From assembly GCA_043818675.1 (NCBI GenBank), contig JBDRFR010000069.1:14877-78876 (forward strand): 64,000 nt of DNA, in the 5' to 3' direction. The notes below the pieces were generated by a model. It was given only the letters and a program-made list of their open reading frames with translations, ran no database searches and was not told the DNA's origin. The translations under genes were made by a program, and so were the position numbers. Each line of letters begins with the position of its first letter. Within the stretch, counting starts at the first letter, position 1. This document shows, piece by piece, positions 7,519-34,500 of the stretch. The DNA comes from Nanobdellota archaeon. Lineage in GTDB: Archaea > Nanobdellota > Nanobdellia > Woesearchaeales > DATDXC01.

Positions 7519-10500
7519 TTGATTATGGCTGCTAGTTGGTTGAATAAAGCAGGGAAAAGTAAGGTTTTGGTAGCTTTAGCTTTGTTTTGCTTACTGTTAG
7601 GGATGTTTGGCGTAGGGTTATATAATGTAGGAGCCAGTCAAGACGAACTACTAATTGAAAGAGAGAACTTGATTAATGAGTTAGGGAATTATTCATATTT
7701 ACTAAACACATCACTTAAGATTGATCATATATTTGTTGAGAATTATTCTTGTTCTTCAGTTGGATATCATACTGTTAAGGTTTTGACAGAAGGAGTGCAT
7801 GATCAATTATTTAAGTTTGGTGATGTTAATGCGTCAGCGCATAATCTGGCAACGTATTCATCCAGTATAACCAATAACACGATAATATGGTATCATTTCA
7901 ATAATGATTCTTCTGTATATGAGAATTATGGAACTGAAGAGTTAACTGCAGAAGATAGTATGGTTTTATTATTCCACTTTAACAATGATTCTAGTGTTGG
8001 TGAGAATGATACGCATGTTTATGATTTTTCAGGGAATGGGAATAATGGAACTGTGACAGGTGCTGTTTATAATTCTAGTGGGAAGTTGAATGGAGCGTTT
8101 GAGTTTGATGGTGATGGGGATTATGTTGGAACAAATTTTAATACAGATATCCAGAACTTTACTGTTTCTGTTTGGGCTAAAAGTCTGTCTGCTCCAACAA
8201 CAGGGGGTGTATATACAGCGGTTCTAGGAAGGGAGGAGAATTTTATTATTTACTGGGATGCTACAAGTGGCACATTTGATGCTACTGTTGCTTATAGGAA
8301 TTCAGCGGTTGGATGGACAGCTTCTGATTTTGGTCCTGTAAGTGCGAATGTATGGTATCATATTGTTGGGACTTACAATGGAACTACTTTGATTACTTAT
8401 AGAGATGGTGTTGAAATAGACACTTCTACATTTGGAGTTCCTCAGAGTACTTCTGATATGTTAGCAATAGGGGATTCTAGGGTTGGAGCAGGAAATTATT
8501 TCAACGGCTCAATAGACGAAGTAGCAATCTGGAACAGAAGCTTATCCGCAGCAGAAATAAAAGGCATTTACATGAGAGGGCTACCTGCACATGTTTATGA
8601 TTACTCACAATATAATAATCATATAAAAGCCAACAAAACTGATCCGTTTGAGCCAACCTTTACAGCAGCAGGTAAATATAATGGAGCGTTGGAGTTCTCA
8701 AAAGATGATTATCTAATTAAGGACAATTTCACATTAGTCGGCGGAAACGGAACAATATCATTCTGGTTCAAGCTCAAAAATAATTATGATTCAGCCAAAG
8801 ATAAACATATGATACCTTGGGAATACAGGGAAGATGATACCCCAAATAAAATGGTCATCAGGTTTGACGCAGGGACTGGCCAGTTAAGGCTTATAACATA
8901 TCCAGGTTCAGATGTACTGACAGATTCAGATGCAACTTCTTGGACAGCAGGTGTCTGGCATCATGTTGCATGGGTACATAACACTACCCATACTGTGATG
9001 TATGTAGATAATGTGTTACAGTCTGATGTTGACACAGCAACAGTTTGGTGGAATGACTTTGCAACAGAAAATAGTACGCTGTATATTGGAGCCGAATATT
9101 ATAGTGGAAAAATACAAAGTTACTTCAACGGAACAATAGACGAATTTATGTTATTTAACAGAAGCTTATCAGCAGCTGAAATATCAGACCTTTATGGTGG
9201 AAAAGCAATAACAGGATTGACTATATGGGATGATTCTGATAACAAGAAAGTATACGCAAATTACACTAAATTCTATGCAGACTATAATGACTCAAGCGCT
9301 AAGACAGCCATATACGGCGGCGGAAGATGGTGCGAGTTTGCGTTTAATAAGACAAACCTAGACTGGAGCATATATACCTACATCAATATGACCTTTAACC
9401 CCAACACATTAAGATATGAATTGATAGCCGATGGCGGTTATTTCAATAACCAGACAGAAAAACACATAGATGGTATGCCAGCTGGACAGTATTATTATAA
9501 TATATCCTGCTATGATGAGACTGGAGTTTATCAGAATGTTTCAGTTGTTGATTTTGTTAATGTTTCTGAATATGATACAGGTTTAGGTATTACGACAAGT
9601 GTTACTGCGCCTGATGTTAACCAAAATGTTATTTTTTATGCAAACTATTCAAGAAATGATGTTTGGGATGTTGATAATTGGGTTTACGGTAATGAGATTG
9701 GGAGGGTTGTGTGGAATAGTAGTTCTATAGGTAATGAAAGATATTATGATGCTATCCCGGCAGTGTTTGTTGATTTTGACAACGATGGTAAAAAAGATGA
9801 ATTTGTTATCTCTGATGGTAACTCAGGGACAATATATCCTTTTTATTCAAACGGTTCACAAATGGAATGGACAAACACACAACAAGGATATGACTCTGCA
9901 GAAATATCTGTTGGAGATTTGGATAGGGATGGTTATGAAAATGAGATAGCAGTTGGAGATTGGCTGAGCGGAACAAGTGATGTGATAATAATTAATGAGA
10001 CAGGTGCAACAGTCTGGTCAGCTGTGAGTAATGGACAGCCAATATATGCTATTGAAATTGATGATTTAGAAAATGACGGATCTCCAGAAGTTGTATTCGC
10101 TAAGACTACAGTCTTAAGCGTCTATAATATGACTGGCTCAGAAATTTGGAATTATACTCTGCCAAATTATGCTTTGGAAATAAGAATGGCGGATGTTGTG
10201 GGGAATGAAAATAAAGAGATTATTGTAGCTACTGCTTATGGGGATAAATTGATGGTATTTAATTCCTCCGGTACTAATTTATGGAACTATACTAATGGAA
10301 ATGATCCGATTTCGATTGCATTCGCAGATATTGACCATGATGGTGTTGATAACATTATTACAGGGATGAGGACCGGAAACCAAGTATATGCAATGAATGG
10401 TTCAGGATCTATGCTTTGGGGAGGGAGTAGTCTTAGCGGAGTTGCCGGACAGATAAATGAGCTTGCCACTATGGATTTGGATGGGGATGGGTATGAAGAT

Positions 10501-13500
10501 GACATTGTGGTCGGAGACCAAGCTGCTGTTAAAGGATATGATAACGATTCAACCAATCTATGGAATTTTAATTTACCCTCGGATGATATATCCTCAATCT
10601 CCGTAGGAGACATCGATAGCGATGGTGATAAGGAGATTATTGCAGGGGGCCTTACAGACGGTACAGTATGGGTACTTAATAGAACTGGCAGCTTAGAATT
10701 TAGCTATAAAATTGGAACCGGCCATATTGGAAATACCTTCTATGCAAGCTCTCCATCAACTGATATTTCTGATGTTAATAATGATGGAATAAATGATATA
10801 GGTGTTGGTATCTATCTAACTAGTGATGATAGTTATGGATATATCTTCCAGGACGTCTCCTGCACAATAAAATTCAACGATTCTGCAACTATTTATAACA
10901 TGACATGGGATTACGTTACTGACAAATGGAATTACTCAAGAACGTTTTCGAATAATGTTGTCTATGCATATAATGTAACCTGCAGTAAAGGTGGCTATGT
11001 AACTCAAATCCAGGAATCAACAGTTGATTTAACACAGACCTTAATAATATGGGACGACTCTAACTCAAAAGTAACATATGCAAATTACACCAAATTTTAT
11101 GCAAATTACACCAAATCAAACGGAACCCCATTGACAGGCAGCGGTGAATGGTGCGAGTTTGCATTCAATAAAACAGGCCTTAACTGGAGCTTTTATACCG
11201 CCTATAACATGAGCTATAATCCAACTACAAAATTATACGAGATAATTGCTGATGGCGGCTATATTAAAAATAACACAGAATCGCATATTGGCGGGATGCC
11301 TGTTGGCAATTATAGCTTTAATATTTCCTGCTATGGCGGCAAAAACTTAACAGCAACAGACACAGTAAATGTTGCTAAGTATGATACAGGTTTATCTTTA
11401 ACACAGTCAAATGTTCATGCTGATATTAACACAGATGTTGAGTTCTTTGCTAATTACACAAGAGATACTGTATGGAATGTGGACAACTGGTTCAGAGATT
11501 CAGGAGAAATTGGCAGAGTTATATGGAATAGCAGTGATGTTGGAAACAGTCTTGTTGCACTAAGACCAGCTGACTTATCTAATGACGGATATCTGTCTGA
11601 TATAGTTACAGTAAATGACTACAAGATTATTGCACACTATCAAAACGGATCAGTAAGGTGGACTTTTTCAACTGGAGTTATCCAACAGGCAGGATCCTTA
11701 AACATTGTCAATCTGGATAACGACGGATTTAAAGATGATATAATTACAAAATTCTCTTATAACATATTTGTCCTTAATAAGACTGGTGATCAACTAAACA
11801 AAACAACTGTTGCAGACGGCGGTTGGGGAATTGGAGTTGCTGGTGATGCAAATAATGACGGAATAGAAGATGAGTTAGTAGTATCAGGCGTAAATTCTAA
11901 TCCGGCAATATTATACAATATATCTAACAGCGGACTTTCTGTTGTTAAACAATGGAATTTTTCAGTACCAGATGATATGAGGGAAGTAATATTCGGAGAT
12001 TTTGACTCAGACGGTTTGGATGATGATTTTGCAATTAGTGGAGTTGATTCAGGAAAAGGAACTTATGTTTATAAATGGAACGGGACAAATTTATTTAATG
12101 TAACTTATGGTGGACTTGCTATTGCCAAAGCTGATATTGACCATGATGGTTTTGAAGATGATATAGTGATTGCAGAAAACGGCAATTATCTTGTTTATTC
12201 TTTTAATGGAAGCTATAATACAAAATACACAAGCACAGATGAAGCAATGGTATACAATACAGATCCAATATCAGTATCCGCAGAGATGATTGTACTGGAT
12301 TTGGATTCAGACGGATTTAATGATGACATCATACTGGGAGATAGAGGCGGAGCAGCTGGACCTGGAATTGTCTGGGCATTTGACAACAATAGTATTGGAT
12401 TGTGGAATATCACATTACCTGCAAACGGAGATGATGATTACATCTATTCCATGGTCGTTGATGATTTTAATAACGATGGTAAACAAGAATTGATCTTTTC
12501 CAGTGAAGAGTTTGATAAAGTTTATGTTGCCAATCTGTCAGGATATGTACTTTGGGACCAGATCATTGGACAAGGAGATATCTCAGTGATTAAAGGAAAA
12601 TCTCCTGGCATCATAAGTATTGACATAAATAAAGATGGAATTTCTGATTTTGCGACCGCTTCCGCAAATGGTTTTGTCCATGTTCTGCAGGACGTATCCT
12701 GCACAATCCAATATGAATCAGAAGGTGGAGAGATTAACAGGACTGGTCAGAATTGGGAAAATGGTTTAGTTGCTCTATATCATTTTAATAATGAGTCTGC
12801 ATATGGCGAAACAACTGTTGGAGTTAATAATGTAACGTATGACTTTGCACCAGGTCACTGTTATGATAACGAAACAGAAATACTAACTAATGAAGGCTGG
12901 AAATTATTTTCAAAATTAAATAAAACTGAGCAAGTAGCAACATTAAATCAGGAAACAAAAGAATTGGAATGGCAGCATCCAATGGAATATCAAGAGTTTG
13001 ATTATGACAATGATATGTATAAGATTATATTGGAGGATGGATCAGATTTACTTGTTTCAGAAAAACATAGGGTTTATGGAAAATCAGTAAGCATCATCGT
13101 GATGAGTGAAATCTTCAAAGATGATCTTATTTTCTCTGACCTGGAAAGTCAGGACAAAATGCCCCACATGAACTCTTTTGAGATGGCTCAAATCCCCTTT
13201 GAGGTTCTTAAGGTGATTGATGGTGACAATATCCATTTCAGAAATTTGGATAATTTTTCTACTCAAAGCTTTGAAGAGAACAGGGTCTTTTCTCTTAATC
13301 TTGATCAGAGCCTTATCAATCTTGGAAATGTCAATATTCATAATTCATCCAGCCACTTTTTTAGTTCTTCGGGAGTCATTGCCTTGCCTTTAGCTGGGTC
13401 TTTAGATATTTTCTTTAACTTTTCTATGAACTCAGGCTTCATAGGAAATTCATCTAATGGATGCCAGTCAATAGATTCACAAAACTGCTCATCTTCCCTA

Positions 13501-16500
13501 GTTAGTTTCCTTGATACACGAAATTCTTCAAATATTCTTCGCTTGTTCAATTCCTCTCTAGCTGCTTCAGACCAGTTTATCCATGGAAATGCTTCAATTC
13601 TTGCCTTAAAGGATTTGTCTACAGGATATATTATACTAGCCATTTATAATTCACCCCTTGCCCTTAATTTTTCTAATGCTTCTAATTTCTTAAGCACACC
13701 CTGTTTTGCAACTTCAGACCAATTAATGTCAGGATGCTTGTCTAACTTTGCCTTAAAATCATCAGGTACTGATATAGTAAACCTTTCCATTTTTGATGCC
13801 TCCTGGATGATACAAGATAATAAAATTTTGGGTTCATCCAACAATTGTATTACTAAACACAATTGTGTTTATAAATCTTTTGATAATTTCAAGTTGATGC
13901 CTATAACTGATGCGTATGGGCTAATCAATTCAGGAAAACAGGTTTATTTCCTGGATGGTTTTAATAATGAGGTTAAAGTTAAGTCGATTGTTAAAGAAAA
14001 GTACAATGGCAGAATATATGATGTCGATGTAAAAAATGATGTTGTTTTGGTAAGAAGGATTGATAGGAATAATCGCACAAATAATTATGATAAAAAAGCC
14101 ACGCAAGCAGGAAAAAATTCATGCCACAATTCTGGGAAATATTGTTATGATAAAAGGACTAAGGAAAACTTCTTTTCTGAAAATGAGGATGGTTTGGGTA
14201 TATTGAGTGAGAGGGGTTATGAAACTAATTATTATGGTATATGGTCTGGGAATAGCAATAACGGAACTATTTATGGTGCTACAGTTGATATGACTGGTGG
14301 GAAGTGGAATGGGAGTTTGGAGTTTGATGGGGCGGGGGATTATGTTGATGCTGGAGATACATTTGATATGGGAACAAATGATCTGTCATTATCTGTATGG
14401 TTTAAAACATCTGATAGTGGTTCAAAAATTAAAACAATTATTTCAAAATCTTATGCATGGGATACAGGTGCATATAATTTGATTATTACTGCTGGTAATA
14501 ATCTAAGACTTCATGCTGAGAATAATACTGGTCAGGGTGAAGTAGATATAATAAGTCCTCTAACTTATACTGATGGACAATGGCATCATGCAGTAGGTAT
14601 TTTTGATAGAGATAAAAATGCAATATTATATGTTGATGGATCTGAAGTTGGTTCAACAACAATGGCAAATATTCTTAATCAGGATCTGGATACTACCTAT
14701 TCATTTAGAATTGGAATGTCACATTGGAATAGTTGGCCCAGACCTTTCAACGGCTCAATAGACGAAGTTGCAATTTGGAACAGAAGTCTTTCTGAATCTG
14801 AAGTCTGGGACTTGTACATGTCGTCAGCACCAAAATATAACATGACATGGGACTATACAAGAAAGAAATGGAACCATACAAAACAGTTCACTTCATACGG
14901 TAATTATACTTACGGAATAACATGCGAAAAAGGCGGCTACACAACCCAAAGAAGCTCAAGTTATGTTGATCTAACCCAATCATTAACAATATGGGATGAT
15001 TCTGATTCAAAAACAGCCTATGCAAATTACACCAAATTTTATGCAAATTACATAAGATCAAACGGAACAGCAATGAACGGAAACTATTGGTGCGAGTTTA
15101 AGTTCAATAAGACAGGCAGATGGACAAAACCAGTCAATATGAGCTTTAATCCAGTAAGCTTACAATATGAAATAATTGCTGATGGCGGATATATTCAGAA
15201 TTCAACTGAAACGCATATTGACGGGATGCCTACTGGAAATTACAGTTACAATATCTCCTGTTATGGTGGTGAATATAAATCACTAACAGATACTGTAAAT
15301 ATAGCAAAATATGATACTGCACTTGCTTTAACCCAAACAAACATCCATCCAAATACCTATTCAGATGTTGAGTTCTTTGCTAATTACACAAGGGCTACTG
15401 TATGGGATGTAGACAACTGGTGGTGGGATACAACTGAGATTGGGAGGGTGGTTTGGAATACAAGTGCTCTTGGAGGGAGTTCACATACTGTTGATTTCTT
15501 TGATTGTTTGAATAGTGGAAAGAAAAATTGCCTTGCGACCACAGAATATTCTGATATCTGGATGTTTTATCCAAATGGAACACAGATTACAGCATCTGGA
15601 ACTGCCTCAAATCCAGGAGGAGATTTATTAGATGCTAATGTTTTTGACGGAGATGGAGATGGTTATGAAAATGAGGTTCTTATTGTTGGAGATAATAATC
15701 AGGTTTTAGTTGTTAACGAGACAAGAAATACTGTGTATACCTATACTGCTGGAGGAGATATTTTTTCTGTTGTTGGAGCTGATTTAGATAACGATGGAGT
15801 CAAAGATGATTTTGTTATTGGTGCTTATACTGGGTCTGTTTATCAGGTCATGGCATTTAATACTTCTGATGGAGTTAATTGGGTGAATTTTTGGAACGGA
15901 ACTGTTGGAGGAGTTATTCAGGAAATGGTTATTGGTGACTTTGATAGAGATGGAAGGGAGATTGATGTTGCTGCTACAGGGACTTCGAATGGAAATGTTA
16001 CTGTTTTTGTTGGGGATAATGGAACATTGATATTTAGTACTGTTGACCTTGGGGCATTATCTTCACTTACAGTGTCTGATTTGAATCATGATAATTACAA
16101 TGATGAGATAATCGTGGGGGAGACGGGTGCCACTAGGGTTCTTGCGTTTAGGTGGAATGGGACATGGGGAGCAGAAATGCAAGATACAGACAATGATACT
16201 AATGGTTGGCTTTGGTCAAACACTCTTCCAACATACAGTATTACTGAAATTGATACTTTTGATGCAGATTTAGATGGTTACAAAGATGAGATTATTTTTG
16301 AAGATGGAGGCAGTTCATCAAACTCAAAAATTTGGGCAGTGGATGAAGAGGGCAACTACTTGTGGAATTTTACATGGGGGAACACAATTGATGTTTCATA
16401 TAGTCTTAATGTTGCTGATGTGAATAACGATGGAAAGGATGAGATAATTTTTGGACCTAGGAATGCTGCTACATTGTATGTTTTGAATATCTCTGGAGAT

Positions 16501-19500
16501 TTATTGTGGAGTTATCCTCTTAATCAGGGTTGGATTGGTAATGCTTATGGAACTTCTCCAGGGATAGATATTTCAGATTTGAATAATGATGGTATAAATG
16601 ATATTGTAGTTTCAACTAATACTGTGGGTTATAAATATATTTTCCAAGACGCTAAATGCTCAATCCAATACGAATCAGAAGGCGGGGAGATTAACAGAAC
16701 AGGTCAGAATTGGGAAAATGGTTTAGTTGCTTTATTTCATTTTAATAATGAAAGTGCATATGGCGAAAACAGCAGCTATATTTATGATTTCTCAGGTAAT
16801 GATAACAATGGAAGTTGTACAGGTACAACATGCCCAACCTTTGATACAACTAGTGGAAAGTGGAATGGTAGTTTTGAGTTTGATGGCGTGGATGATTATG
16901 TTGCAATGTCTCAGGATGATAGTCTAAATTTTTCAGGAGATAGTGAGATTACCATTTCCTTTTGGGCTAAACTTGTATCAGCAGATAATAGGCATGCTGT
17001 TATTGGGGCGTGGGATGGTGAGTCTGGTTCTACTTCTGCTTATCTCTATATGGACAATTCTGGAGCTAATGGAATTATTATCAAGAATACAATAGGAGGT
17101 GATACTGGAATTAGAACATCAAGCACATCTTTTAATTTAAACACTTGGTACCACATAGTTTATACTTTTAATGGTGTCTTAGAGACAGTCTATCAAGATG
17201 GCACTCAAATTGATACAAATGATATAAGTGGAACCATGCGTAATAATGGTGAGACAGGTCCTTGGGTAGGTCATGCAATGAATGATGGAACAACTCCAGT
17301 ATATTTCAACGGCTCAATCGATGAAATCGCAATCTGGAACAGATCATTATCCGCATCAGAAGTTTGGGATTTGTATATGTCATCAGCACCAAAATATAAC
17401 ATGACATGGGACTATACAAGAAAGAAATGGAACCATACAAAACAGTTCACTTCATACGGTAATTATACTTACGGAATAACTTGCGAGAAAGGCGGATATA
17501 CAACTCAAAGAAGCTCAAGCTATGTTGATCTGACTCAGTCATTAACTATATGGGATGATTCCGATTCAAAAACAGTCTACGCAAATTACACCAAATTTTA
17601 TGCAAATTACAAAAGATCAAACGGAACCGCATTGAACGGTAATTATTGGTGCGAGTTTAAGTTCAATAAAACAGGTATATGGACAAAACCAATCAACATG
17701 AGCTTTAATCCGGTTTCCCTACAGTATGAGGTAATAGCAGATGGTGGATATATCCAAAACTCAACTGAATATCACATTGACGGTATGCCAAACGGTTATT
17801 ATGGGTATAATATAACATGTTACGGTGGTGATTATAAATCATTAACAGATATGGTCAATGTTTCTTTATATAATACAACTTTGGGAGTCAGCAGGAATAA
17901 TCTTGCGCCAGAGGTGAACGTTGTTACAACATTTTATGCAAACTATACAAGAAATGATGTATGGGATGTTGATAACTGGAAATTGGGACATGAGATTGGG
18001 AGGGTTGTTTGGAATACTAGTTGTCCAACATGCGGCAGTGTTTCTGCTATACCTGAATTTGTAGACTTCAATGAAGACGGTAAGAAAAGTGAATTATTCA
18101 TTCTTGCTGATGGTTTCCCTTATGCTATTTCAAGTAATGGTTCTAAGATCTGGACAAGTTCAACAGAGAGATATGTTCCTAGCCAAGCAGTAGCTTTTGA
18201 TGGAAATGGAGATGGATATGATAATTATGTTGTTGCAGTTGAGGATGTAAATTCTGGTTCAGGTATACGTGTGTATAACAGTACAGGGAATATCATTTGG
18301 GAATGCGGCTTTCCCGGAGACTTTATGTCTGTTGTTGCAACTGACTTAGATAATGATGGAAAGAAAGATGATTTTGTTGTAATTGATACATATACTCCTG
18401 TGGGTAATGTTTCCGCATATACTACTACTAACGGGCAAACATGGGTGATTAATTGGAGCCATATATTTCCAGCGACTAATACCGCAGATGGATCTATTAA
18501 GATAGGAGATTTAGACAACGATGGAAAAAAAGATGATTTTGCAATTGCAGGTGTGGAATATACGATTGCCCTAAATGAAACTGGAGGCGTTATATGGAAC
18601 ACAACTGACTTAGTTGATAGAGTAAATGGTGTTGGAATTGGAGATTTTGACCATGATGGTTATGAAGATGATGTGATTGTAGGGAATAGGGGATATTTAT
18701 ACATCTTCACTTTTAATGGAACTTATGGAGTTACATATACTACAAATGATGCAATTGCATCTTCTTCCTACCCTAACAGTGGAACACAATCAACTGTTAC
18801 TAGTATAGTTGTATTTGATTTGAATAATAATGGATTTAAAGATTCATTTGCTTTATCAGACATAACATATGATTCCATAGGTGTTTTTGACAACAATACT
18901 AATAATGTTTGGTTCCACAATACAAATGATTTTGGTGATGGAAGCATAGATGTAAATACTGTACGGGCAAGTGATTTTAATAATGATGGCAAAGATGAAC
19001 TGATGTTTGGTGCAGATAACGGGCTTATATATATTTTTAACAGCACAGGTTCTCTTTTGTGGAAATATGTTTTGATAGATCACGTGGGGGAGTCTTCTAG
19101 AGAGGATGCCGTTAAATCAGGCGACATCAATAATGATGGAATCTCTGATTTTGTAGCTGTCACTGTGAATTCTTACACTTACATATTCCAAGACGTATCC
19201 TGTTTCATAAGATTCAACGATTCAACATCAGTCTACAACATGACCTGGAACATAACTTTAGACAAATGGCAGTACCAAAGGACATTTCCTGACGTATCAA
19301 GATATAAATACAACATCACCTGCTCAAAAGGCGGATACATTACACAGTTTACAAACACTTCTTTTGCAACAGAAGACGGAAACCCAAGATGGAGTTCAAA
19401 TAAGACTAACCTAACAAGAAATTCACCATATTTAGCAGATGTCCATTTCAACATTACATTAAATGACATCAATCCAGCATCATACATATTCAGCTGGTAT

Positions 19501-22500
19501 AATGGGACTGCATGGGAGAATAATTCCCCTGTAAGTTATGATGATAATACAGAAATCTCTGTTACAAAAACATTAAACATAAGAAACGAATCTGCTGCTA
19601 TCAGCTGGACATTCTACTTTAATGATACTGTTGGAAATAATAATCAAACAGATGTATGGAGCATTACAGTTGATAATATACTGCCAAGGATAGATTATTC
19701 AGGTGGAACTAACGCAGATGGCGAAAACATAGCTAAAAATTATATTTATGTCAATGTATCAGTTACAGAAGAAAATGTTGATAAGGTATGGTTTAACCTG
19801 TACAATGATGATTATTCTTTGAACAAAAGCATGATACATGGTGAGTTACCAAATTATAGACCTGAGACTTATATTAATATGACCGGCAATGTACTTTTAA
19901 TGCATTTTAATAATGACAGTTCTGTTAGAGAGAATTCAACACATGTTTATGATTGGTCAGGTATGGGGAATAACGGGACTGTTTATTTTAATTCATATCC
20001 AAACCTAACAAACCCTAAGCTTGGTTTAGGAGCATTTTCATTTGACGGAACTGATGACTTTATCAATATATCTGACGTTCCATCATTAAGGTTAACTTCG
20101 ACAGGTACAATATCTATGTGGATCAAACAAAGCGGTGCAGACCAAGATCCATACGCTACATATGTAGGAAAAACCAGGGGTGGTGTGACAGCTACAATTG
20201 CATATATTCTTTACCATAGAGATTCAGAAGGTACAATTAGGGGAACTATCTGTAATGATGCTAACTGTGACTTGATCCAAACACAGGAATTTGCTCAATC
20301 AGATGTTGATTGGCATCATCTGGCATTTACATGGGACAGCGTAAACTTATCTTTATATAAAGACGGCATTTTGTTTAATAAGACCCCTCAAACCCGAAGC
20401 GTAGATAATGATGCAGGAGATCATCTCAAGATTGGCGGATATGGTTTCAATGATGTGGGAAGTGATGATTTCAGCGGTTTAATGGATGAGGTTGCAATCT
20501 GGAACAGAAGCTTAAGCGCAGATGAAATAAGAGACATATACGAGATCCAGAAATCTGCATATTACCATAACTTTACAGTATCAGACGGAACATATCATTA
20601 CAATGTTACAGTCAATGATACTTCTGGTAATCAAAATGTTACAGCAACAAGAAGTGTTTCACTGGATCCAACTTATCCTAAAGTTTCATTTGTCTCTCCA
20701 ACTTATAGTGATGGTAAGTTTACTAAGAATACTTCTATTCCAATAAATGTAACAATAACAGAAGCTAATCTTGACAGGATAATATATGAATGGGATGGTG
20801 TTAATGAAACAGACTTCAAGCTGGATGCGCCAATAACTGAAGTAAACTTTACAGTCTCAAGCTTAGAAACTTTAACTGTAAGTAACGGTTCCCATAAGAT
20901 TGATCTGTTTAATGATAGTTCTCTTGTGTTGGCTATGAGTTTTGATAATTTGTCTGCTCTTGGAGAGAATGATACTCATGTGTTTGATTGGAGTGGGGGT
21001 GGGAATAATGGGGCTGTTTATGGAGGAACTGACGCTGATTCTGGTTTCACAACGAGCGGGAAATATTCAGGAGGACAGATGTTTGATGGGGAGTGGGATT
21101 ATGTTTTTGTTAATGATTCAGATGTATTCAGTGGAAATTTGGCGATATCTTTATGGATAAATGCAAAACAATGGAGTACAGATGGAACACTGGTAAGAAA
21201 ACTAGATGAGTGGCAATTAGATATTAATGATGGTACTGTGGTTAGATTTTGTGATACTGCGGCATGTAGCGATATTGCTACTTCTGAATTGAGTTTAGGT
21301 AAATGGTATCATGTTGTGGGAATTAGAAATAGTTCTGGAGTAGAGTTATTTGTAGATGGGATAAGTCAAGGATATGTTGCAGACCCAATTGCTTCAAGAA
21401 CAACTAGTCATGTTTATATTGGTGCAGAGGAAGGAGCGTTTGACTTTTTCAACGGCTCAATAGACGAAGTAAGAATCTACAATCGTTCTCTTTCTGCCTC
21501 AGAAGTTGCAATGCTTTACAAATCTAATCTAAGAAAATACGACGTAAACAAATATAATTTATTTTTCAACCAATCAGGAAATTTCAGTTTAACCTACAAC
21601 ATTAATCAAAACACAACAATCAACCTAAGAAAAAACAGCACCAGAAACTACTGGCTGGATATCAATAAGCAAAGTTTAGCTGATGATTCCTACGCTTACA
21701 GAGTATTTACAAAAGACGACATGCAAAACTGGAACAGCACAGAGCAAAGAACAGTAAATGTTGACCTGGAAAGCAGGATTGTATTAGGCGATGACTCAAA
21801 CAACAAAAAAGTTTATGCTAACTACACAAGATTCTATGCAAACTTTACAGATGTTGAAAACAATACAATAAACGGTTCAGGGTATTATTGTGAGTTTGCT
21901 TATAATAAAACAAACCTGGCATGGAACAGATATACAGTAACAAACATGAGCTATAATCCAATTACAACACAGTATGAAATCATAGCAGATGGTGGATATA
22001 TACAAAATGCAACAGAGAGTCACATTGATGGAATACCTGTAGGACTTTATTATTATAATATAACATGCAAAGACTCAAGCGGGGGCTACACAGCAATCTC
22101 AACTGTTGACCTTGTTAATGTTTCTGAATATGACACAAACATAGCAGTAACCCAATCAAACATCCATCCAGATACAAACGCAAATATCGAATTCTTTGCA
22201 AACTATACAAGGGATACTATGTGGGATGTGGATAACTGGTGGTGGGATACTAAAGAAATCGGAAGGATTGTGTGGAATAGTAGTGAATATGGTGCGCTTT
22301 CAGATACTGTGTATTTTGTTAAGGCTATGGACTTAGATAATGATGGAGAAATGGATGAAATTGTTATAGGGGGTATACCCACCATGGAAGCTTTTAGTTC
22401 AAATGGAAGCTGGATTTGGTCAAAAGCCGTTCATAATTATGATACACATTTTGAAGTATGGGATCTAGATAACGATGGCTATAAAAATGAAATCTTAACA

Positions 22501-25500
22501 GGAACAAATGGGGGCGATGTAAAAATTATTAATGAATCTAGTGCAAATGTTGCAGTATGGAATAGTTATAGTTATGGGAGTAATGGGGGGACTATGATAT
22601 TAGGAGATCTAGATAATGATGGATTTAAAGATGATTTTGTAGCTGTAATAGATACAGGCAGCGTTAGAAAAATTCTTGCTTGGAATACCTCAGATTATGT
22701 AACCTGGGTCAATTTTTGGAATTATAGCCTTCCTCATGACATTTATATAGATCAATTAATAGTATCTGACTTGGATGGTGATGGGGATGATGATATCGCA
22801 GGCTCGGTCACTGCAAATGATCCAAGATCGTATACGTTTGCCTTAGTAGGACACAATGGATCCGTACTTTGGAATACCACATCCAATTATGACCAACTTT
22901 GTTATTCATTGATTGCTTTAGATATGGATCATGATGGACTTAAAGATGATATAATTACCGGTTGCACAGGAGATATACATAATTTTAGTTTAAATGGAAC
23001 TTATGGAGCAACATATACTCCTTCGTTATTTAATAATTCACCAACTGGAAATATTTTAGAAATAGCAGCGATTGATTTGGACAATGATGGATATGAAGAT
23101 GAGATTATTGTAGGTGATACAGGAGTTTATAACACTGGTCCAGGATATGTAAGAGCTTTTAATAAAAATGGAATTGAAGAATGGAATTTTGAATTGCCTC
23201 CCACAGGTATTGCTGATGGGGACGATATTGCATCGCTGGTTGTGGGAGATGTGAATAGTGATGGGAAAAAAGAAATAGTGTTTGGTAATGAACAGCTTGA
23301 TACAATTTATGTTTTAAACAAATCAGGATCATTATTGTGGGAATATAAAATTGGATTAGGTAATATCGGATCATCAAGCGATGAATCACCAGGTATTGAT
23401 CTGACTGATATCAACAACGATGGTATTCTTGATATTGTAGCTAGTTCACTAACAGGTTATGCACACGTTCTTCAAGATACAACATGTACAATTCAATACG
23501 AATCAGAAGGCGGAGAGATAAATAAAACAGGAACTAATTGGGATGATGGACTTGTAATGTTAATGCACTTTAATAATGAATCAGCATACGGTGAAACAAC
23601 AGCCGGAATTAATAATGTAACATATGACTTTTCAGGTAATGGCAATAACGGAACAATATATGGTGCAACGTTTAATGCAACCGGTGGTAAATGGAACGGA
23701 AGCTTTGAGTTTGATGGGATTGATGATTATATTGAATTAACAGATATGAACATTAATGATGAATTCACAGTTTCAATGTGGTTCAAAGCTAAAAAGTTAC
23801 AAGACGGCGCTACTTTAATTGGTGATTTGGACAATATTGGAGGTAATGAGGGTTGGTCCATAAGATACTTAACTTCACTAGGTAATGAATTGCACTTCAG
23901 TTTTGATGGAACTACATGTGGATGGACCAATTACGACCTTACTGGGATTAATCCGGATAATGACAACACTTGGCATTTTATTTCTGTTGTCTTTACAAAC
24001 AATACTGTCTCTTGGTTTTATGATGGAACTACTGAAGTTGATAGTCACAGTCAGCAATGTGTAGTTGAAGATTCTAATGAGAATATCAAAATTGGCGTCG
24101 CTTCCAGAGATACTTTCCCAATAAGTGCAAGCGGACACTTCAACGGCACAATCGATGAAGTAGCAATCTGGAACAGATCATTATCAGCTGCAGAAGTTTG
24201 GGACTTATACATGTCATCAGCACCCAAATACAACATGACATGGGACTATACAAGAAAGAAATGGAACCAAACAAAACAGATAACGACATACGGCAACTGG
24301 ACTTATGGCATAACATGCGAGAAAGGTGGATATGTAACCCAAAGAAGCTCAGGTTATATTGACATGACTCAATATTTGACAATATGGGATGATTCTGATT
24401 CAAAAACAGTTTATGCTAATTACACTAAGTTTTATGCTAACTACACAAGATCGAATGGAACTGCATTGAACGGTAACTATTGGTGTGAATTTAACTTTAA
24501 TAAAACTGGAATTTGGACAAATCCAGTCAATATGAGCTTTAATCCAACAACAACACAGTATGAAATAATCGCTGACGGCGGATACATACAGAATTCAACA
24601 AAAACGCATATTGACGGGATGCCGGTTGGAAATTACAGTTATAATATAACATGTTATGGTGGGGATTATAAGTCTCTAACTGACACAGTTAATATTGCTG
24701 AGTATGACACAGTTTTATCAATACTTAATGATACAGATAAAACTGTTGGAGAAAAGATAAAATTCTATGCTAACTATTCAAGAGTTGACCCATACAAAGT
24801 AACTAACTGGAAATTAGGTAAAGAGATTGGGAGGATTGTTTGGACTGATAATTTAACAACTGACACAGAATTGATATCTATTACGTCTTATGATATGGAT
24901 AAAGATGGAAAAAGAGATGAACTTGCAGCTGCGGTAAGGGATCAAAATACCGGAGAATTAGCCTATTTTTATCCAAACGGTACATATAAATGGATCTATT
25001 CAGTTTCCTGGGATTTTACAGAGAGCATATTTGCAGGAGATTTAAACGATGATGGTTACTATAACGAGATATATTATCCAATGGTGGGTGAACCCGCAAT
25101 ATTTAATGAATCAGGAGACCAGGTGTGGACAGGCAGCATCACTTACCCGGCAATGCAGTTTGAGGGAGCCTTACTTCTGGATATTGACGGAGACGGACAA
25201 AAAGATGATCTGGTTGTGGTAAATGCTACTGGTGTGTTTGCATATAATACATCTGATGGGATTACCTGGCATAATTTATGGAACTATTCTCACCCAATCA
25301 GTCTTGGCTTAAACAATCTGTGGGATGCTGCTTCAGGAGATCTGGATAATGATGGTAGAGATGATATTCTGTTGGGAACATATCTCCCTCCCAATTTATA
25401 TGTGATCAATTCCACCGGTAGTCAAATGTGGAATTATTCCTACATACAATACGGACTGGCAGTTGAATTGATAGATCTTGACAGTGACGGCAAAAAAGAT

Positions 25501-28500
25501 GAAGTTATCCTGGGTAGTCTATATCAAATTATCCATGGTATAAATGGGTCTGGCGGACATCTGTGGAACATATCTGGCGGAAATCTCAGGCATTATGAAC
25601 TTAATGTTCTTGACCTGGATGATGACGGATTTGAAAATGATTTTGTTGTAGGTGATGCCAATGGAAATGTCACAGCATATAATGCTTCTCTGACAAACCA
25701 TGACATGATGTGGTCAATTGATCTAAACGGGGTAGGGGCTAATGATATCTATTCAGTTTCAAATGCAGATATAAATAATGATGGAATAAAAGAAATTCTA
25801 GTGGGTGGAGAAGATGCAATTTTATGGGTTTTAGATAAGTCAGACGGAAGTGTCCTGTGGGATTATACTGTCGGAACAGGAGACATTGGATCAGGGGCTG
25901 GAAAATCCAGAATAACAACCACAGATATAAACAATGATGGAATAAACGAGATTATTGTGGCATCACGAACAAACGCACAAATCCACACCTTCCAGGATGT
26001 AAACTGCATCATAGAAATCAGCGACGGAACATCAGCTGACATGAATTATAACTCAACCTCCAGAAAATGGGAATACAATAAAACATTCATTATTGCAGCT
26101 GACTACGAATATAATGTAACCTGCACAAAGGGAGGATATACTGAACAGGTACAAAGCTCTACTTTATCAGTTGCAAGCTTAAGGACATATCATCAGCCGT
26201 CAGCTGTTTATTCAAACTATACAAGGTTTGTCGCTAATTTCACTGAAGGCACTGGCAAATGCAGGATGAAATACAATAAGACAGGCATATGGAGCAGCTG
26301 GCATAACATGAGCTGGAATGGGACGATAAACGCGTTTGAGCTTGAAGCTGACAATGGGTATAGAAGAGGGCATATGCGCTCAATGCCGGCCGGAACTTAT
26401 GACTATTATATTGACTGCAATAACTCTTTAGGCCAGGCTGTAAATGCAACAGATTCGATAACTGTAAATGATTATGATACAAACCTATCAATATCAAACA
26501 CTAATAATAATCCAGTTATCGACCAACCTATCATTTTCTATGCTAACTATTCAAGAGTTGATCCATACAAAGTAGATAACTGGAAATTAGGAAATGAGAT
26601 TGGACAGGTTGTATGGAATACAAGTGATATTGGCACAAATGCAAATGCGATCGCAGCCATTGACCTGAACAATGATGGAAAGAAAAATGAGTTAATAATA
26701 GTAATGGACAGTGATATTACTGGCTTGTATGCAAATGGCAGTGAGAAGTTCAGCCAGACTTCTGGCATAGGTAATTCAATCTTAGATATAGCTGTTGGTG
26801 ATTTTGACAATGATGGTTATGAAAATGATTTTGCAATTGTAAGAGGCGCAAGCACCCTCGAGGTGTTTAATGAAACAGGCCAGGAAGTATGGGAAAGCGG
26901 CGATTACGGATCTACGCCTGCAATACCGGCTATAGGAGACTTTGATGGAGATGGCATCAAGAATGATTTCTTTATGATGGATGGCGGAAGTGTTTTTGTT
27001 TTTAACTCAACAGAAGGAAAGGTTTGGAGCGAGAGATGCAGCATTACGCATGGTGCCAACGTTTATGCTGGATATGATGCTATAACAACTAGAATTTATG
27101 ATTCATCTAAAGATGATATAGTTTTTGTTTCCAGTGAGAATAGTGCAACACCTGGCATTTGGGCGATTAATACATCATCTATTGGAACATGCAAACAATA
27201 TTATAATGGTTCAGGGAATTTATTTAGATCACTTGATGTTCTGGATATTGACCATGATGGAATTGAAAATGAATTTGTTGTAGGTGAAAATGGAGATGTA
27301 CTTGTATTTAATTTAAGCTTAGATATAATCCTTAGTGATTCTACACCTGATGATAATATTTGGGAGATCAGAAAAATTGACCTGGATAATGATGGATTTA
27401 AGGATGATTTTGTCGCTTCAGAAGATAATCCTCCAAGAATCAGGGCGTATGATAATAATTCTGATTTGAACTGGACATTTAATACTGGCGAATCTGCAGG
27501 AGTGTCTATCTTTTCGATGGAAATAGCTGATGTTAATAATGATGGAATAGAGGATATTTTATTTGGAACAAGCACTGGTATTGTTTATGCTGTTAATATT
27601 AGTGGAAACTTAATGTATAAATATGATATTCAATTAGGAACAATCGGAAATGACAACTCAAGAGCTTCATCAACAGACATCTCAGACATAAACAACGACG
27701 GAATAAATGATGTAGCAGTTGCATCCTTTGATGGCTACGCACACATCCTTCAGGATTCATCCTGCACTATAAAATTCACAGACGGATCATCATACAACAT
27801 GACCTGGAACATAAGTAAAGACAAATGGCAGGCAAACAAATCATTCAGATTAGCAGGGACATACAGCTACAATATTACATGTAATAAAGGCGGATACATA
27901 TCACAAAACCTAACTGCAAGCATTACAGCTGCAAAACAAGGTTCATTCTGCGATTGGGGAAGCTTAGCTACAACATGCCATATTAATACAAGCATAACTG
28001 TAAAGAATAACTACCAATTAAACGCATCCAACATAATAATCCATGAGCTTGGAAACCTATACAATAATTCAGGCATAAGCTTCATAATAAATCTAACCGG
28101 AAACCTAACAATAAAAAGCAGCGGAACAATCAATTTATCCGCAGCAAACTGCGCAAGCGGAACTTGCACAAACGGCGGAAACCTGACAATTATTGCATCC
28201 ACATTCAACCTAAGCAGGGGTTCATTTATTTATTCCAATGGCGGCTCTTTAACATCTGATGGAACCAAGGGTGGTAGTGGAGGAATAATAAATATCACAG
28301 CCAGATCATTCTATTTTGACGGAAATATAACATTAGATGGTGGAGATAATGCAGGAACATACAGTACTGGAGATGGAGGCATAGGTGGCACCATGGTTAT
28401 AGATGTTAATACCAACCTTAACATAGGTGGTAATCTGCTTGGAAAAGGCGGAACCGGAAGATCAAACATCTGCGCTGCAAATAGCGGCAGCAGGGGTAAT

Positions 28501-31500
28501 GGTGGTAAACTGATAATTAATGAAAACAATCTTAACCTGACAGTAAACGGAATTATTGACTTGCCTCCTGGAGAAAGAGGATATTGTGCAAATGGCACAT
28601 TTGGTGCAACTGACCTAAACATAAATACCTTAACTGTAAGCCAAAATGGGCAGCTTAAGATTGGAGGAACAATCAACTCATCAACTATAACCATAAGCGG
28701 TATTTTAGGACCAAAAGAAAGTTTGGGCGGAGACGGCAGGGTAAGCAGAAATAACGCTAGTGAACTGACAATCCTAAGCAATGTTTTAAATTTAACTTCA
28801 GGTGGAATAATTACAGGCAAAGGCCAAAGTGAAACAAACAACCTTGACTATTATTCAGGAACAGGTGCCACAATAAACATTTCAGTTGCAACCTTCTATT
28901 TTGATGGAAATATATCGATCGAAGGCGGAGAAGACTCAAGCGGAAATACTAACGGCGGAGGAGATGCAGGAATTTTGTATTTGGATGTGAATAGTAATTT
29001 GATTGTTAATGGAAACATTTTAGCAGATGGCGGAGTTGGAAGACCAAATGTCTGCGACAGTACAACTACAGGACATAGGGGGAGTGGTGGAACAGTCATC
29101 ATTAATGAGCCAAACCATAACATTAGTTTAGTAGGTCAGATTATTTCAAATAGGGGCACTACTGGACTTTGCGATGACGGCTCCGGCGGAACAATAAATA
29201 TCACAGCATCAGTATTAAACATAACAAACAACATTGAAGCAAAAGGAAACATCTCAGGAAATATTAACCTAAAAGCAGTCAGATTATACATTAACTCAAC
29301 ATTAAACGTAACCTCGGAAACAAATGACCAAAACGGAACAATAAGGATAACTTTCAAAGACAACTTCAACGCAACATATTCAAAGATTGAACCGGTTACA
29401 TACTTAGAAAGAAACACAACAGATGGAATGGTTTCTTTCTTACAATCATTTAACAGAAGATTAAACTCTACAATCCCGTATGAAAACGCAATAACTATAG
29501 CTTACAACAAAATAAACATTAACTCCACGAAATACAAAGACTTAAACAAGTCTGCCGATATAAAACTCTACAGCGCATTCGTCGGCGATATCAGGTTATT
29601 AAAAGACGGATTATTATGCACCTCCTGCAATCTAAAGGATTACTCGTTAGGCACTGCATACTTCAACGTAACATCGTTTACCAACTATTCGATAATCGGC
29701 AACACTACTTTAGTCTTATTTGATTCAGAGTATGATGTTCACCCGTTAAGCAATAACCCGATTATTTTCCAAAATGAAGTGGCCATATTCTACGCAAACT
29801 ATACAAGAAACAACGATAGTATTATTCTAACCGATGCAACTTGCGTTATTTACTTTAACGACACACAATCATGGACAGCTATGAGTTATAAGCCTGATAA
29901 ACAGTTGTTCTCGTATAACAGGACCTTTACAGCTGGCGGCAACTACACATGGAACACCAGCTGCGGCAGATCAGACTATTTAACCCAGTCAACAGAAGAT
30001 AACATATCAATCTCCGCTAACACCCCTCCTGTAATAAACTCTGTAAATATTACTATCAACAACAGTCTTTCAACTTTAGCCTATACTAACTCAACCTTAA
30101 ACTGCATGTTTAATATTACCGATATGGACGAAGGAGAACTTGTAAGAGCGAATATCACCTGGTTTCGGAATTTAGGTGATGGTTATATCCCCTGGACAAT
30201 GGACAACGAAGACGAGATTACCATAACACACAATATCTCGATGAACACAACATCAGGCGACATTGAGCCAGGCAAAACCAACCACAGCGACAGCTGGATC
30301 TGCCAGGTTACAGCATACGACTTATATAACGGCACCTCAATAACAAACTCCTCACCGTTGACAATCCAAAACTACAGCACTGTTTTAGTAATCTTTGACG
30401 AAGAAACAGACATTGAACAGCACAGGCGCTCAAACACAAGCACAATCTACAAGTTCCAGAACACCTCATTTTATGCTAATTACACCTTAAACCATCAGAT
30501 CATAAATCCTGCAATCTGCAGTATCTATTTCAACGATTCAGTAAGCATCAACATGACATACAAAGACACCCTATATTATTATAACAGAACTTTTACAAAA
30601 GGCGGCAATTTCACATTCAATATTACGTGTAAACGGTTCAATTACACAACAAAGACCAACTTTAGCTGGCTATGGATAACCTACAACTCATCACTAAGCA
30701 TCTTTGACCAGGAATCAGACGAAGAGACCAACCTATTAAGCAATAATGAGATCTACCAAAACGAAAACAGCTTTTTCTACGCAAATTATACAAGGGACGA
30801 TGATAACGCAACGATTACACAAGGCAATTGCACTATCTCTTTTGATGACAAAAAAGCCAACATGAGCTACAACACAAGTTTGCAGCTATTCACATACAAT
30901 AGGAGTTTTGCAGTCAGGGGCACTTATACTTGGTCAATAAATTGCACGACTAAAGGCTACGAGCAGGAGAACAAAACTTCCAGTATAACGGTTCTCTCTG
31001 CCGAGTTTGAGCATATTTATATTACACCCGAGATAGCATACAGCTCTGACAATCTGACTTGCATAAACACTACTGTAACGAATCAGGGCTCGGAAAATTA
31101 TACATTGGTCTATGAGTGGTTTAATGACGACGTTAGGATTGCAATTCTGGATTTAGCTTCCGATGGATCGGTAACACGTAACAACCAGGGCCAGGGAGCT
31201 GCATCTAATGCAATCGACAACAACCTGGCAACAGTTTGGCAGACAGACGAATTATCACTTGGCTGGATAAAGTTCACATTAGATAATACAAGAACCATCG
31301 GCAAATTAGACTATACGTTTAACGGTTCTGGCAATAGGGATAATTTCAACATATCATATTCAACTGACGATTCCACCTACATTACATTATACAGTTCACT
31401 GTCCGACCCAGGAAACGAGGTTACAATAACAAAAACCTTCGACCCTGTAAACATGAGGTATATCAGAATTGATTTCAGGAGCGGCTCGACCCAGGAATTT

Positions 31501-34500
31501 GGCGGATTGGCAGAATTCAATGTCTACCCGACAAACATACTATACAGCTCTTACACAACAAAAGGCGACAGTATCCATTGTACGATAACAGCCATGTTAG
31601 ACGATATTAATGCAACCACGTACACAACAAAATCCAGGTACAGGATTTTTACTAATCAAAGCGATTTCATAGGCGGAACATTAGTTAACACCTCTATTAC
31701 TCACCAGCCCGGCAATATCACGCTATACCCTAACTCAACAGGCAACTATTCAAACACAACAGGATACTACATTTCACCTTCCATTGATTTCCAAAGATTA
31801 TCACCCTCCATCTCGACGATAAGCTGGAACGGTTCAGATACAGGCATCAGTATCCAGACAAGGGTTTCAGCTGACAACAGCACCTGGTCAGAATGGCAAG
31901 GGCCGCAATTGACAAACAGCCCAAATATTTTGGCGCTTATGCATTTCAATGACGCTAACACCACAGTGAACAACGACCTGCCATTGTCAGGCAATTTCAG
32001 TTATAAACAGGCCAAATGGAACAATGGATTATTGATAAATCACACAAGCTATATTAGTTACAATACAAGCTTGTTGAACTATTCAACAGGCACGATCGCT
32101 TTCTGGCTAAAGCCTCTTGCCAATTTACAAGAAGGTTACCTGTTCGACACAGCATACAATGTAAGCATCAACCGAATCTCCTTATACCTTGAAAACTCTG
32201 TTTTATTCTTTAGGATCAGGGACAGTAATGACCGCGACCATATTGTTAACACTACGGTTGACTTCCAGGAAAATGTATGGCAGCATTTAGCAGTAACCTG
32301 GAACTTAACTAACATGTCAATTTACGTAAACAATACTTTGTTCACATCAAACATCAGGTCAAATGAGATCAAAAATGATAGTAACACTCTTCTTTTAGAA
32401 AGATTTGAAGCAGGATCAAAAATACAGAATAATGGCGGCATTTTACAGGGCAGCCTGGTTGATGGTAAATACAGTAATGGGTTTTTATCAGCAAATACAG
32501 GAGACGTTATCAATTATTCCACAACAAACCTTAACATCACAAAAGGCACTATTGAATTCTGGCTGAAACTTCAAAACTCTTTAGACTCAAAAACTTACTA
32601 TTTGTTTGACACTGCGTATAATGACAGTATTGACAGGTTATCAATCTATTTAGAAAATTCAAAACTTAATTTCCTGATAAGGGATAAAGATGACCGCGAC
32701 CATTTGATTAACGCAAGCGTTAATTTCCAGGATGACATTTGGTATTCAATAGCTGCTGCATGGAACCAAACTAATATGAGCTTATACATCAATAATAGTT
32801 ATCAGGCAGGTGATTATAGAAGCACTGAAGTAGCTAACGATTCTGATACCTTACTGATAGAAAGGTTTGAATCAATCAATAAGATAGACACTAACGGCGG
32901 CAGTTTTAAAGGCAGCCTTACCGATGGCAAACATGATAAAGGCTTCTTATCAGCTATAAGCGGAGACGTAATCAATTATTCCACAACAAACCTTAACATC
33001 ACAAAAGGCACTATTGAGTTCTGGCTAAAACTTCAAAACACCTTAGATTCAAAAACTTACTATTTATTTGATACTGCTTATAATGACAGTATTGAAAGGC
33101 TGTCAATCTACCTGGAAAACTCAAAACTTAATTTCCTGATAAGGGACAAGGACGACCGTGACCATTTGATCAACGTAAGTGCAGATTTCCAGGCAGGTGT
33201 TTGGTATTCAATAGCTGCTGCATGGAACCAGACAAACATGAGCTTATACATAAATAACAGCTATCAGGCAGGCGATTATAAAAGTACTGAGATAAAAAAT
33301 GACACAAGCACATTGCTCTTAGAAAGGTTTGAATCAATAGCTAAAATAACAGCTAATAACGGTTATGTTTCAAGCGGCGTAAATCTCACCCAGGGCAGGC
33401 ACAGTAAAGGAATGATCACCGACAGACCAGGCGAATTTGTAAATTATTCTAGTGATTATTTCAACCGCACCAAAGGCACTATCGAATTCTGGATTAAACC
33501 TGTTTGGCCAGGAACTGCTGATAAAACTGATTATTTCTTTGACCAGGGCAGCGGTTCACAAGCAAACAGGATGTTTATTTCAAAAGGCAGTGATCCGGCA
33601 AGCGAATTAAGCATATCAAACTCAAGCATAGTATTTGCCATTTTTGACGGTGCAGGAACATCTCATTATGTAAGTTCTGATATTAGTTCATGGCAATCTT
33701 CGGAATGGCACTCAGTTGCAGCAGTTTACAATTTCACTGGATCATCTTCCTACATGGCTTTATATGTTGACAACGTTTTGCAGGACAACACCCCGACAAA
33801 TCCAGGCGCCTTCACACTCAGCGCAAAATCCATTTTATACATTGGTTCAAACAGGCTAAAGGATCATTATTCAAATGCCACAATTGACTCTTTAAGGATT
33901 TCAAACAACCCAAGGTCAAACTTCAGCTATATTTACGCTGACGATACTATTCCGATTAGTAATAAAGCAGCCTTACAGCATATTGGCAATAGTTATAATT
34001 TAAGTTATCCAGCTAATGCAACAATTGACTCCTTTAGAATATCAAACATACAAAGAACAGGCTTTAGCTATATCTACGCAGATACAATACCATTGCTTAA
34101 CAAAGCAGCCTTATTGCATATTGGCAATAGTTACAATCTAAGTTATCCAGCTAATGCAACTATTGACTCTTTAAGGATATCAAACACACAAAGAACAGAC
34201 TTTAGCTATATTTACCCAGGTGACACACTTCCGATGTCTTCCAAAGCAAAAGAGTTTTTCATAGGCACAAACTACACAAAACACCAGCAGATAAACTCCA
34301 CTATTGATGAGTTTGTAATATACAACAGTATTCAAGATATAGGCGACATTTATCAGACATCGCATACAGCTTTCCAGGGCACTGTTCCCACGCCGCACCT
34401 TAGGTTTTTACAGTACAAGATTAACTTCCAAACAAACTTCACTAACCAAACACCAATCCTTGAAAAGCTGACTATTCAGCAGGATGATTTCCCTATCATT

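Follow-up and report, generated by a model that had tools for sequence, protein, structure and literature searches.

The persistence of inteins is attributed to repeated gain and loss powered by homing endonucleases, and toxin-antitoxin (TA) modules stabilise mobile elements such as plasmids, genomic islands, and integron cassettes. Here, we analysed a stretch of 64,000 nucleotides (the window; contig JBDRFR010000069.1 of assembly GCA_043818675.1) from an archaeon of the order Woesearchaeales, in which a predicted type II TA operon lies on the minus strand between the two halves of an intein-like (Hint) domain. This domain is inserted in a giant open reading frame (ORF) on the plus strand, which encodes a putative surface adhesin. 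The cassette occupies the central slot between the intein blocks B and F, and the host frame stays open across it under a codon constraint that is imposed by the host. We consider it probable, with some reserve, that a TA operon has settled antisense in the endonuclease slot of an adhesin intein, that its codons have been shaped by the host gene, and that the slot serves it as a safe harbour, with a possible contribution of the operon to the upkeep of the intein.

The closest described systems are inteins with LAGLIDADG or HNH homing endonucleases. They likewise carry selfish cargo between blocks B and F, keep the frame of their host gene open and are inserted site-specifically, and in both cases the product of the cargo slot would be excised by splicing. 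The cargo in the window differs from them, as it is a TA operon that runs antisense, has its own putative promoter and is not translated within the intein. Furthermore, TA cargo cannot home by DNA cleavage, and its codons bear the imprint of the host frame. Bacterial intein-like (BIL) domains reportedly occur in large bacterial surface proteins. They resemble the present insertions in being Hint-type insertions in variable regions of very large surface proteins, and some of them lack the canonical C-terminal Asn or the +1 nucleophile, as is seen in the copies called type I below. Unlike BIL domains, the present insertions are archaeal and harbour antisense TA operons, and the copies called type II are canonical (Cys1, TxxH, AHN|T).

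With regard to the cargo, the RelBE/YafQ-DinJ and VapBC modules, including the archaeal aRelE/aRelB, share with the present cassettes an upstream ribbon-helix-helix (RHH) antitoxin gene overlapping the toxin gene, the C-terminal HHDxxY of the toxin, the pairing of VapB with a PIN-domain VapC, and a promoter and operator upstream, both putative here. The present cassettes are unlike these modules in being nested antisense in another coding sequence, in their host-imposed codons, in an extra small RHH gene, and in their repeated occurrence in intein slots. As for TA modules that stabilise mobile elements, an addiction module on a dispensable element could make the loss of this element lethal; here, in contrast, the element would be an intein in a chromosomal adhesin gene, the module is overprinted antisense, and the stabilising effect is presumed. 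Literature searches on inteins together with toxin-antitoxin modules, and on antisense or overlapping genes in inteins, returned biotechnological uses and unrelated papers and no description of TA cargo. A bioRxiv paper on giant proteins of Omnitrophota touches on TA in passing, and inteins are absent from it. What appears to be new is an intein with a new class of cargo, a TA operon, which is encoded antisense, whereas homing-endonuclease cargo and BIL domains were already known.

Anatomy of the intein slot and its cassette

The host ORF (7519..43815, plus strand) encodes 12,098 amino acids with the Pfam domains FG-GAP and Laminin_G_3 and with DxDxDG-rich repeats, and from this domain make-up its product is predicted to be a surface adhesin. 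The start of the ORF is uncertain: the TTG at 7519 is the earliest in-frame start codon following a stop, and the true N-terminus may differ. Within this frame, the N-terminal half of a type I Hint domain (12859..13083, plus strand) runs from Cys1 in block A (CYDNETEILTNEG at 12859) to the block B motif SEKHRV at 13057-13074. It was recognised by profile matches and by homologous N-terminal halves in another contig of the same genome (C8), the profile scores of the domain being 0.0035 for Pfam Intein_splicing and 3e-4 for Hint_2. The C-terminal half (approximately 13900..14250, plus strand) contains block F, RIYDVDV, at 14011, the motif CHN|S at 14122-14133, and the boundary ...YYGIW|SGNSNNG at ~14242-14247. 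The end of the insertion, at ~14245, was set at this boundary by alignment to an empty paralogous site elsewhere in the host ORF.

On the minus strand, three consecutive genes lie between blocks B and F. The first encodes a CopG/VapB-like RHH protein of 48 amino acids (13644..13790), recognised by profile matches and probably a regulator or second antitoxin; the second, p101, a RelB-like antitoxin of the RHH_12 family with 101 amino acids (13338..13643); and the third a toxin of the RelE/YafQ family with 85 amino acids, a putative mRNA interferase (13084..13341). The start of the toxin gene overlaps the end of p101 by ATGA at 13338-13341, and its stop codon abuts block B. The toxin matches TIGR00053, the YafQ-family addiction toxin, with E=3.4e-9, which does not reach the curated cut-off; its match to Pfam ParE has 0.031. 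Its homologues with 50-71% identity are annotated at their source as 'RelE of RelBE', paralogous toxins lie above the Pfam ParE gathering threshold, and the C-terminal HHDxxY, the region of the catalytic motif, is kept in all embedded toxins. The small RHH protein matches the NCBIfam VapB antitoxin (1.9e-5) and Pfam RHH_1 (0.006). For p101, an RHH N-terminus and a match to DUF2683 (2.5e-4) were found, and its relatives in free-standing homologue loci are called RHH_12; these free-standing operons of RHH_12 and toxin genes share the ATGA overlap of the window cassette. PADLOC matched none of its defence-system models to the three cassette proteins.

A preliminary description of the window, made from the sequence, had placed this cassette in the homing-endonuclease slot, with block B ending at 13083 and block F starting at about 13881. 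The cassette indeed sits exactly in the central slot of the intein, and block B ends at ~13074-13083; the start of block F, however, had to be moved to near 14011. The three minus-strand genes described there were reproduced, with the coordinates of the RHH gene and of the ATGA overlap, the motif INWSE(V/A)A is present in both RHH proteins as stated, and the RelE/ParE and RHH profile searches proposed there gave the matches listed above. Its treatment of the two RHH paralogues as equals was revised, as p101 is the core antitoxin and the small RHH protein an extra component. It had also suggested looking for free-standing forms of the cassette, and free-standing homologues of the toxin turned out to be frequent among the genomes of the order (149 of 301).

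Regulatory signals were found upstream of the cassette. The Shine-Dalgarno sequence GGAGG of the RHH gene (13792..13796, minus strand) lies 6 nt before the ATG and is conserved in other cassettes. Further upstream, within the host coding sequence, a putative archaeal promoter (13863..13880, minus strand) combines a TATA-like box (AGATTTATAAA) with an overlapping operator-like palindrome of 16 bp (AAACACAATTGTGTTT, 13863-13878). A palindrome of 18 nt with the core CACAATTGTG (13849-13876), for which the host frame reads KHNCV, was also seen on the putative TATA box. The palindrome at this box could be the operator of an RHH autoregulator. TATA-like box, operator-like palindrome, and GGAGG are conserved 5′ of embedded and free-standing cassettes alike, so that the cassette appears to bear a promoter, an operator, and ribosome-binding sites of its own within the host coding sequence and would be transcribed from the minus strand. 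A scan with a bacterial sigma-70 promoter and terminator model gave 11 promoter-like sites versus ~6.6 expected and 0 terminators, but this model is unsuited to an archaeon and the result uninformative. Based on the family matches, the free-standing homologues, and the conserved promoter and Shine-Dalgarno sequence, the window cassette is predicted to be a complete type II TA operon.

With its promoter inside the host coding sequence and facing the host RNA polymerase, the cassette might also serve the regulation of the adhesin, whose expression would then be set by antisense transcription or by the RelE toxin cutting the long adhesin mRNA; at 36 kb, this mRNA would offer an mRNA interferase an extensive target. 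The preliminary description had raised a related idea, that convergent transcription could gate the expression of the distal 30 kb. We regard such a regulatory role as unlikely, as the same cassettes occur free-standing elsewhere, where it is impossible.

Codon constraint and the conserved frame

The codons of the toxin gene are aligned with those of the host frame, where TTA, CTA, and TCA would be read as stop codons. Neither TTA nor CTA occurs among the eight Leu codons of the toxin (three CTC, two CTG, two TTG, and one CTT), and TCA is absent from its four Ser codons; genome-wide, TTA and CTA together account for 43% of the Leu codons and TCA for 28% of the Ser codons. In p101, the register of which makes them harmless, TTA and CTA are used freely. 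After synonymous recoding according to the codon usage of the genome, the host frame was open in 0.27% of the trials for the toxin gene alone and in 0.09% for the three genes. With the codon usage of genes rich in G and C at third codon positions (GC3-rich), it was open in 2.1% and 0.48%, respectively.

The preliminary description had noted an open plus-strand frame over the cassette, a Leu codon tally without TTA and CTA, and the codon alignment of the toxin with the host, and had suggested that selection on the cassette codons keeps the host ORF open. The ORF 7519-43815 is open across 13084-13880, and our count confirmed the tally and the alignment. The synonymous shuffling that it had proposed as a control placed the open host frame beyond chance (0.09-2.1% of trials), and the suggested codon selection is backed by this recoding null and by the stop codons in free homologues.

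For these homologues, a sample of 29 loci was taken from the 301 genomes of this order. Their codon-aligned antisense register contained 0-8 stop codons (mean ~3.5), and zero stops occurred only in the embedded copies of two other genomes (G027 and G268) and in one GC-rich genome. Among four loci that seemed both free-standing and stop-free (L001-L004), L001 turned out to lie within a Hint-containing giant ORF of 1875 codons, and L002-L004 lie within an open stretch of 380 codons that is probably relict. Hence, when we checked whether free-standing relatives are as stop-free as embedded toxins, they were not, and the host-imposed codon bias stands. In free homologues the codon-aligned register has the fewest stops, with a mean of ~3.5 versus ~6.1 and ~5.0 in the other registers, a plausible reason for the use of this register by all seven embedded toxins that were inspected.

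Two other origins of the open frame were considered and rejected. An open antisense frame as an intrinsic trait of the toxin family was set aside in view of the 1-8 host-frame stops that free-standing homologues carry. A GC-driven bias behind the missing TTA and CTA was set aside as well, since even with GC3-rich codon usage only ~2% of the trials were open, and free relatives are without the bias. The codon constraint is host-imposed.

To see which of the two frames is conserved, amino acid identity was calculated per frame, and this was done in place of a ratio of nonsynonymous to synonymous substitution rates (dN/dS) because the paralogues are too diverged. In each of the 21 pairs of embedded paralogues, the toxin frame gave a higher identity than the host frame did, and the protein frame of the TA genes is therefore the conserved one, with the qualification that paralogues sharing 30-58% amino acid identity make this a rough test. 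The host segment, a Ser/Asn-rich low-complexity linker within the intein, appears to be held mainly by stop avoidance; it may be excised or, apart from stop codons, free of constraint.

These data also bear on the converse explanation, in which the host frame is the functional gene and the antisense ORFs resembling TA genes would be shadows, or passengers in decay, that persist solely because they lack stops by chance. A host frame that is open over 36 kb agrees with it, but it is largely refuted by the better conservation of the toxin frame in all 21 pairs. The conserved catalytic motif, the strong family matches, the free-standing homologous operons, and the conserved promoter and Shine-Dalgarno sequence also stand against it, and the host translation over the cassette, of low complexity and composed of Ser, Asn, Leu, and Phe, is typical for the shadow of a Lys/Glu-rich antisense gene. 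We consider this explanation very improbable.

Intein types and recurrence in the order

Two types of intein carry such cassettes. Block A with the N-terminal Cys1 is present in both; in addition to the window copy, it reads GH|CYDNKTQ in the type I copies of C8 and L|CVAENSLI in type II. Block B contains TxxH within TTGNHPYLV in type II and SEKH in the window, where Ser substitutes for Thr. Type II inteins have the signature Cys1 ... TTGNHPYLV ... HVYDLEIENTHNF ... IIAHN|T with all canonical splicing residues in place, and their extein flanks are identical in the contigs C8, C124, and C162. Type I is characterised by Cys1, a weak Pfam match, and a terminal Asn that is mostly missing: in block G, the window copy has CHN|S, whereas the copies in C8 and G027 are without HN; when compared with the empty paralogous site, type I copies, including that of the window, have the boundary ...W|S. 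Judged from these residues, protein splicing is likely for the canonical type II copies and uncertain for type I.

For both types, an empty paralogous site was found on the plus strand of the window host ORF: by sequence comparison for type I (...NNVTYDF|SGNGNNGTIYGATF, 23560..23680), and by comparison with the intein copies in C8, C124, and C162 for type II (...RPE|TYINMTGNVLLMHFNN, 19830..19910). This indicates site-specific insertions into repeat units. According to the empty sites, type I and type II inteins vary in presence and absence among the repeat units of the giant ORF. The only intein of this genome in a classic host, a conventional one in a Hel308-like helicase (G000:C112:38620-41736, plus strand, locus L032; LAGLIDADG_3 5.3e-14, Helicase_dom4_arc 2e-31) keeps its LAGLIDADG homing endonuclease, so that TA cargo is specific to adhesin inteins. 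At G000:C61:47334-50000, weak Intein_splicing matches are accompanied by an in-frame TGA, possibly marking a decayed intein.

To map the recurrence of the arrangement, inteins in giant ORFs were marked by Intein_splicing matches, and Hint halves and cassette genes were then mapped. In the source genome, at least nine antisense TA cassettes of the RelBE or VapBC type occupy central slots, in at least six inteins, which belong to the two types and to four giant genes. Nine of the 11 RelE/PIN toxins detected in this genome are embedded antisense in giant-ORF inteins, and free-standing ones were found only in the contigs C155 and C18. The window contig (C69) contains one cassette. Contig C8 (22,753 bp; loci L026/L027) is covered by a minus-strand ORF of 7584 codons, which is open over the whole contig and contains three intein regions with five TA modules. 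Its first region holds a three-gene RelE cassette and its third a second RelE cassette; the second region (19822→16973) consists of tandem units of an N-terminal Hint half plus TA module, in the order VapBC, RelBE, and VapBC, followed by a single C-terminal Hint half. One cassette each is present in C124, with a RelE toxin, and in C162, with a PIN toxin. The VapBC cassettes were confirmed by PIN_2 (VapC) toxin matches.

Beyond the source genome, G027, which belongs to the same order and another family, has one VapBC and one RelE cassette in type I inteins, and G268 has a RelE cassette in the same architecture. Arranged by type, cassettes are thus hosted by type I inteins in the window, C8, and G027/G268, and by canonical type II inteins in C8, C124, and C162. 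Because the arrangement recurs in several inteins and in several genomes of the order, it represents a mode of existence of these TA modules at the level of the lineage.

The source genome is an archaeal metagenome-assembled genome of 2.06 Mb with 35% GC, in which RNA_pol_N/Rpb10 is present; genomes of relatives from the same order have sizes of 0.6-2.1 Mb. As it is 63% complete and consists of 187 contigs, an assembly artefact or chimera was considered, which we hold to be scarcely credible: several contigs and two further genomes show this architecture, and the codon constraint is internally consistent. When two metagenome runs were compared with the window, short contigs of a groundwater sample matched pieces of the cassette exactly; none of them spans the whole cassette, and no joint skips it. 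These exact matches also argue against an artefact. In one of the runs (X1), mapped on positions 12000-15000 of the window, one contig joint skips 403 nt (14345→14749), and positions 14727-14827 are deeply covered by many contigs, which is probably due to a repeat or another organism. The cumulative GC skew of the window is positive at 4-28 kb and turns negative at ~28-30 kb and once more beyond ~50 kb, which probably reflects gene orientation on the long plus-strand ORF or a replication feature.

Role of the arrangement

In the explanation that we favour, a self-contained TA operon would have settled antisense in the central Hint slot of a giant adhesin, where its own promoter, operator, and Shine-Dalgarno sequence would make expression from the minus strand possible, and the adhesin gene would be read through the operon on the opposite strand. 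Purifying selection on the host would have removed those cassette codons whose reverse complement is a stop codon, and the host-encoded segment would be a low-complexity intein linker that is taken out by splicing. Selection shaping the TA genes would act mainly on the toxin frame, not on the host frame. Intein slots in giant, fitness-essential genes would thereby offer safe harbours, from which the cassette could be removed only by precise loss of the intein, and cells losing the unit of intein and TA operon would be killed post-segregationally, by which endonuclease-free inteins would be kept in the genome. The most likely role of the intein slot is that of a safe harbour for the TA module, which cannot be deleted there without harm to the host gene.

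A stronger version, for which we see a limited chance, holds that TA operons replace homing endonucleases as the means of intein maintenance. Precise loss of an intein could take place by gene conversion or unequal recombination with empty paralogous repeats of the same gene, and if post-segregational killing made this loss lethal or costly, intein and TA operon would form a composite selfish element that spreads among repeat units and genes without DNA cleavage.

Several points weigh against the favoured explanation. The RelE/YafQ-family toxin occurs in 149 of the 301 genomes of the order mostly in free-standing RHH-RHH_12-RelE cassettes, and embedded and free-standing toxins are interleaved in their similarity, which is consistent with repeated capture or escape and not with a single embedded clade. 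The frame comparison is rough, as stated above, and the addiction role of the TA operon for the intein is purely what we infer. The type I Hint domains of the window, C8, and G027 may perform cleavage only or stay unprocessed; left unspliced, they would leave an antisense-shadow linker of ~300 amino acids in the adhesin. Finally, the cassette could be no more than a mobile TA module that tolerates landing in an intein linker, with no special partnership.

This last point is the core of the main rival explanation, according to which the cassettes are passengers only, i.e., independently mobile TA modules in intein linkers whose encoded segment is excised or tolerated and where an antisense insertion hardly harms the host, with no partnership between TA module and intein in either direction. 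The wide spread of free-standing homologues and the interleaving of embedded and free toxins fit such passengers well, and the clustering of TA modules within a single intein region of C8 resembles accumulation at a tolerant site. A restriction of TA cargo to adhesin inteins, with the helicase intein retaining its homing endonuclease, and the presence of the same cassette family in two unrelated intein types speak against them. We consider mere passengers possible, yet rather doubtful, and retain the explanation by a settled antisense operon in a safe harbour.

The arrangement has consequences on several levels. Gene callers are prone to miss or mis-call genes that are nested antisense in giant ORFs, and in the context of the host gene these TA genes are unannotated. 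As a natural experiment on gene overlap, the antisense overprinting of an entire operon reveals its cost at the level of single codons, in the TTA, CTA, and TCA missing from the toxin register; eight or more copies that look independent make this constraint measurable. The locus also touches the long-standing question of how inteins without endonuclease escape loss. If the proposed explanation is true, an antisense addiction module in the central slot would be an endonuclease-free route for the persistence of inteins.

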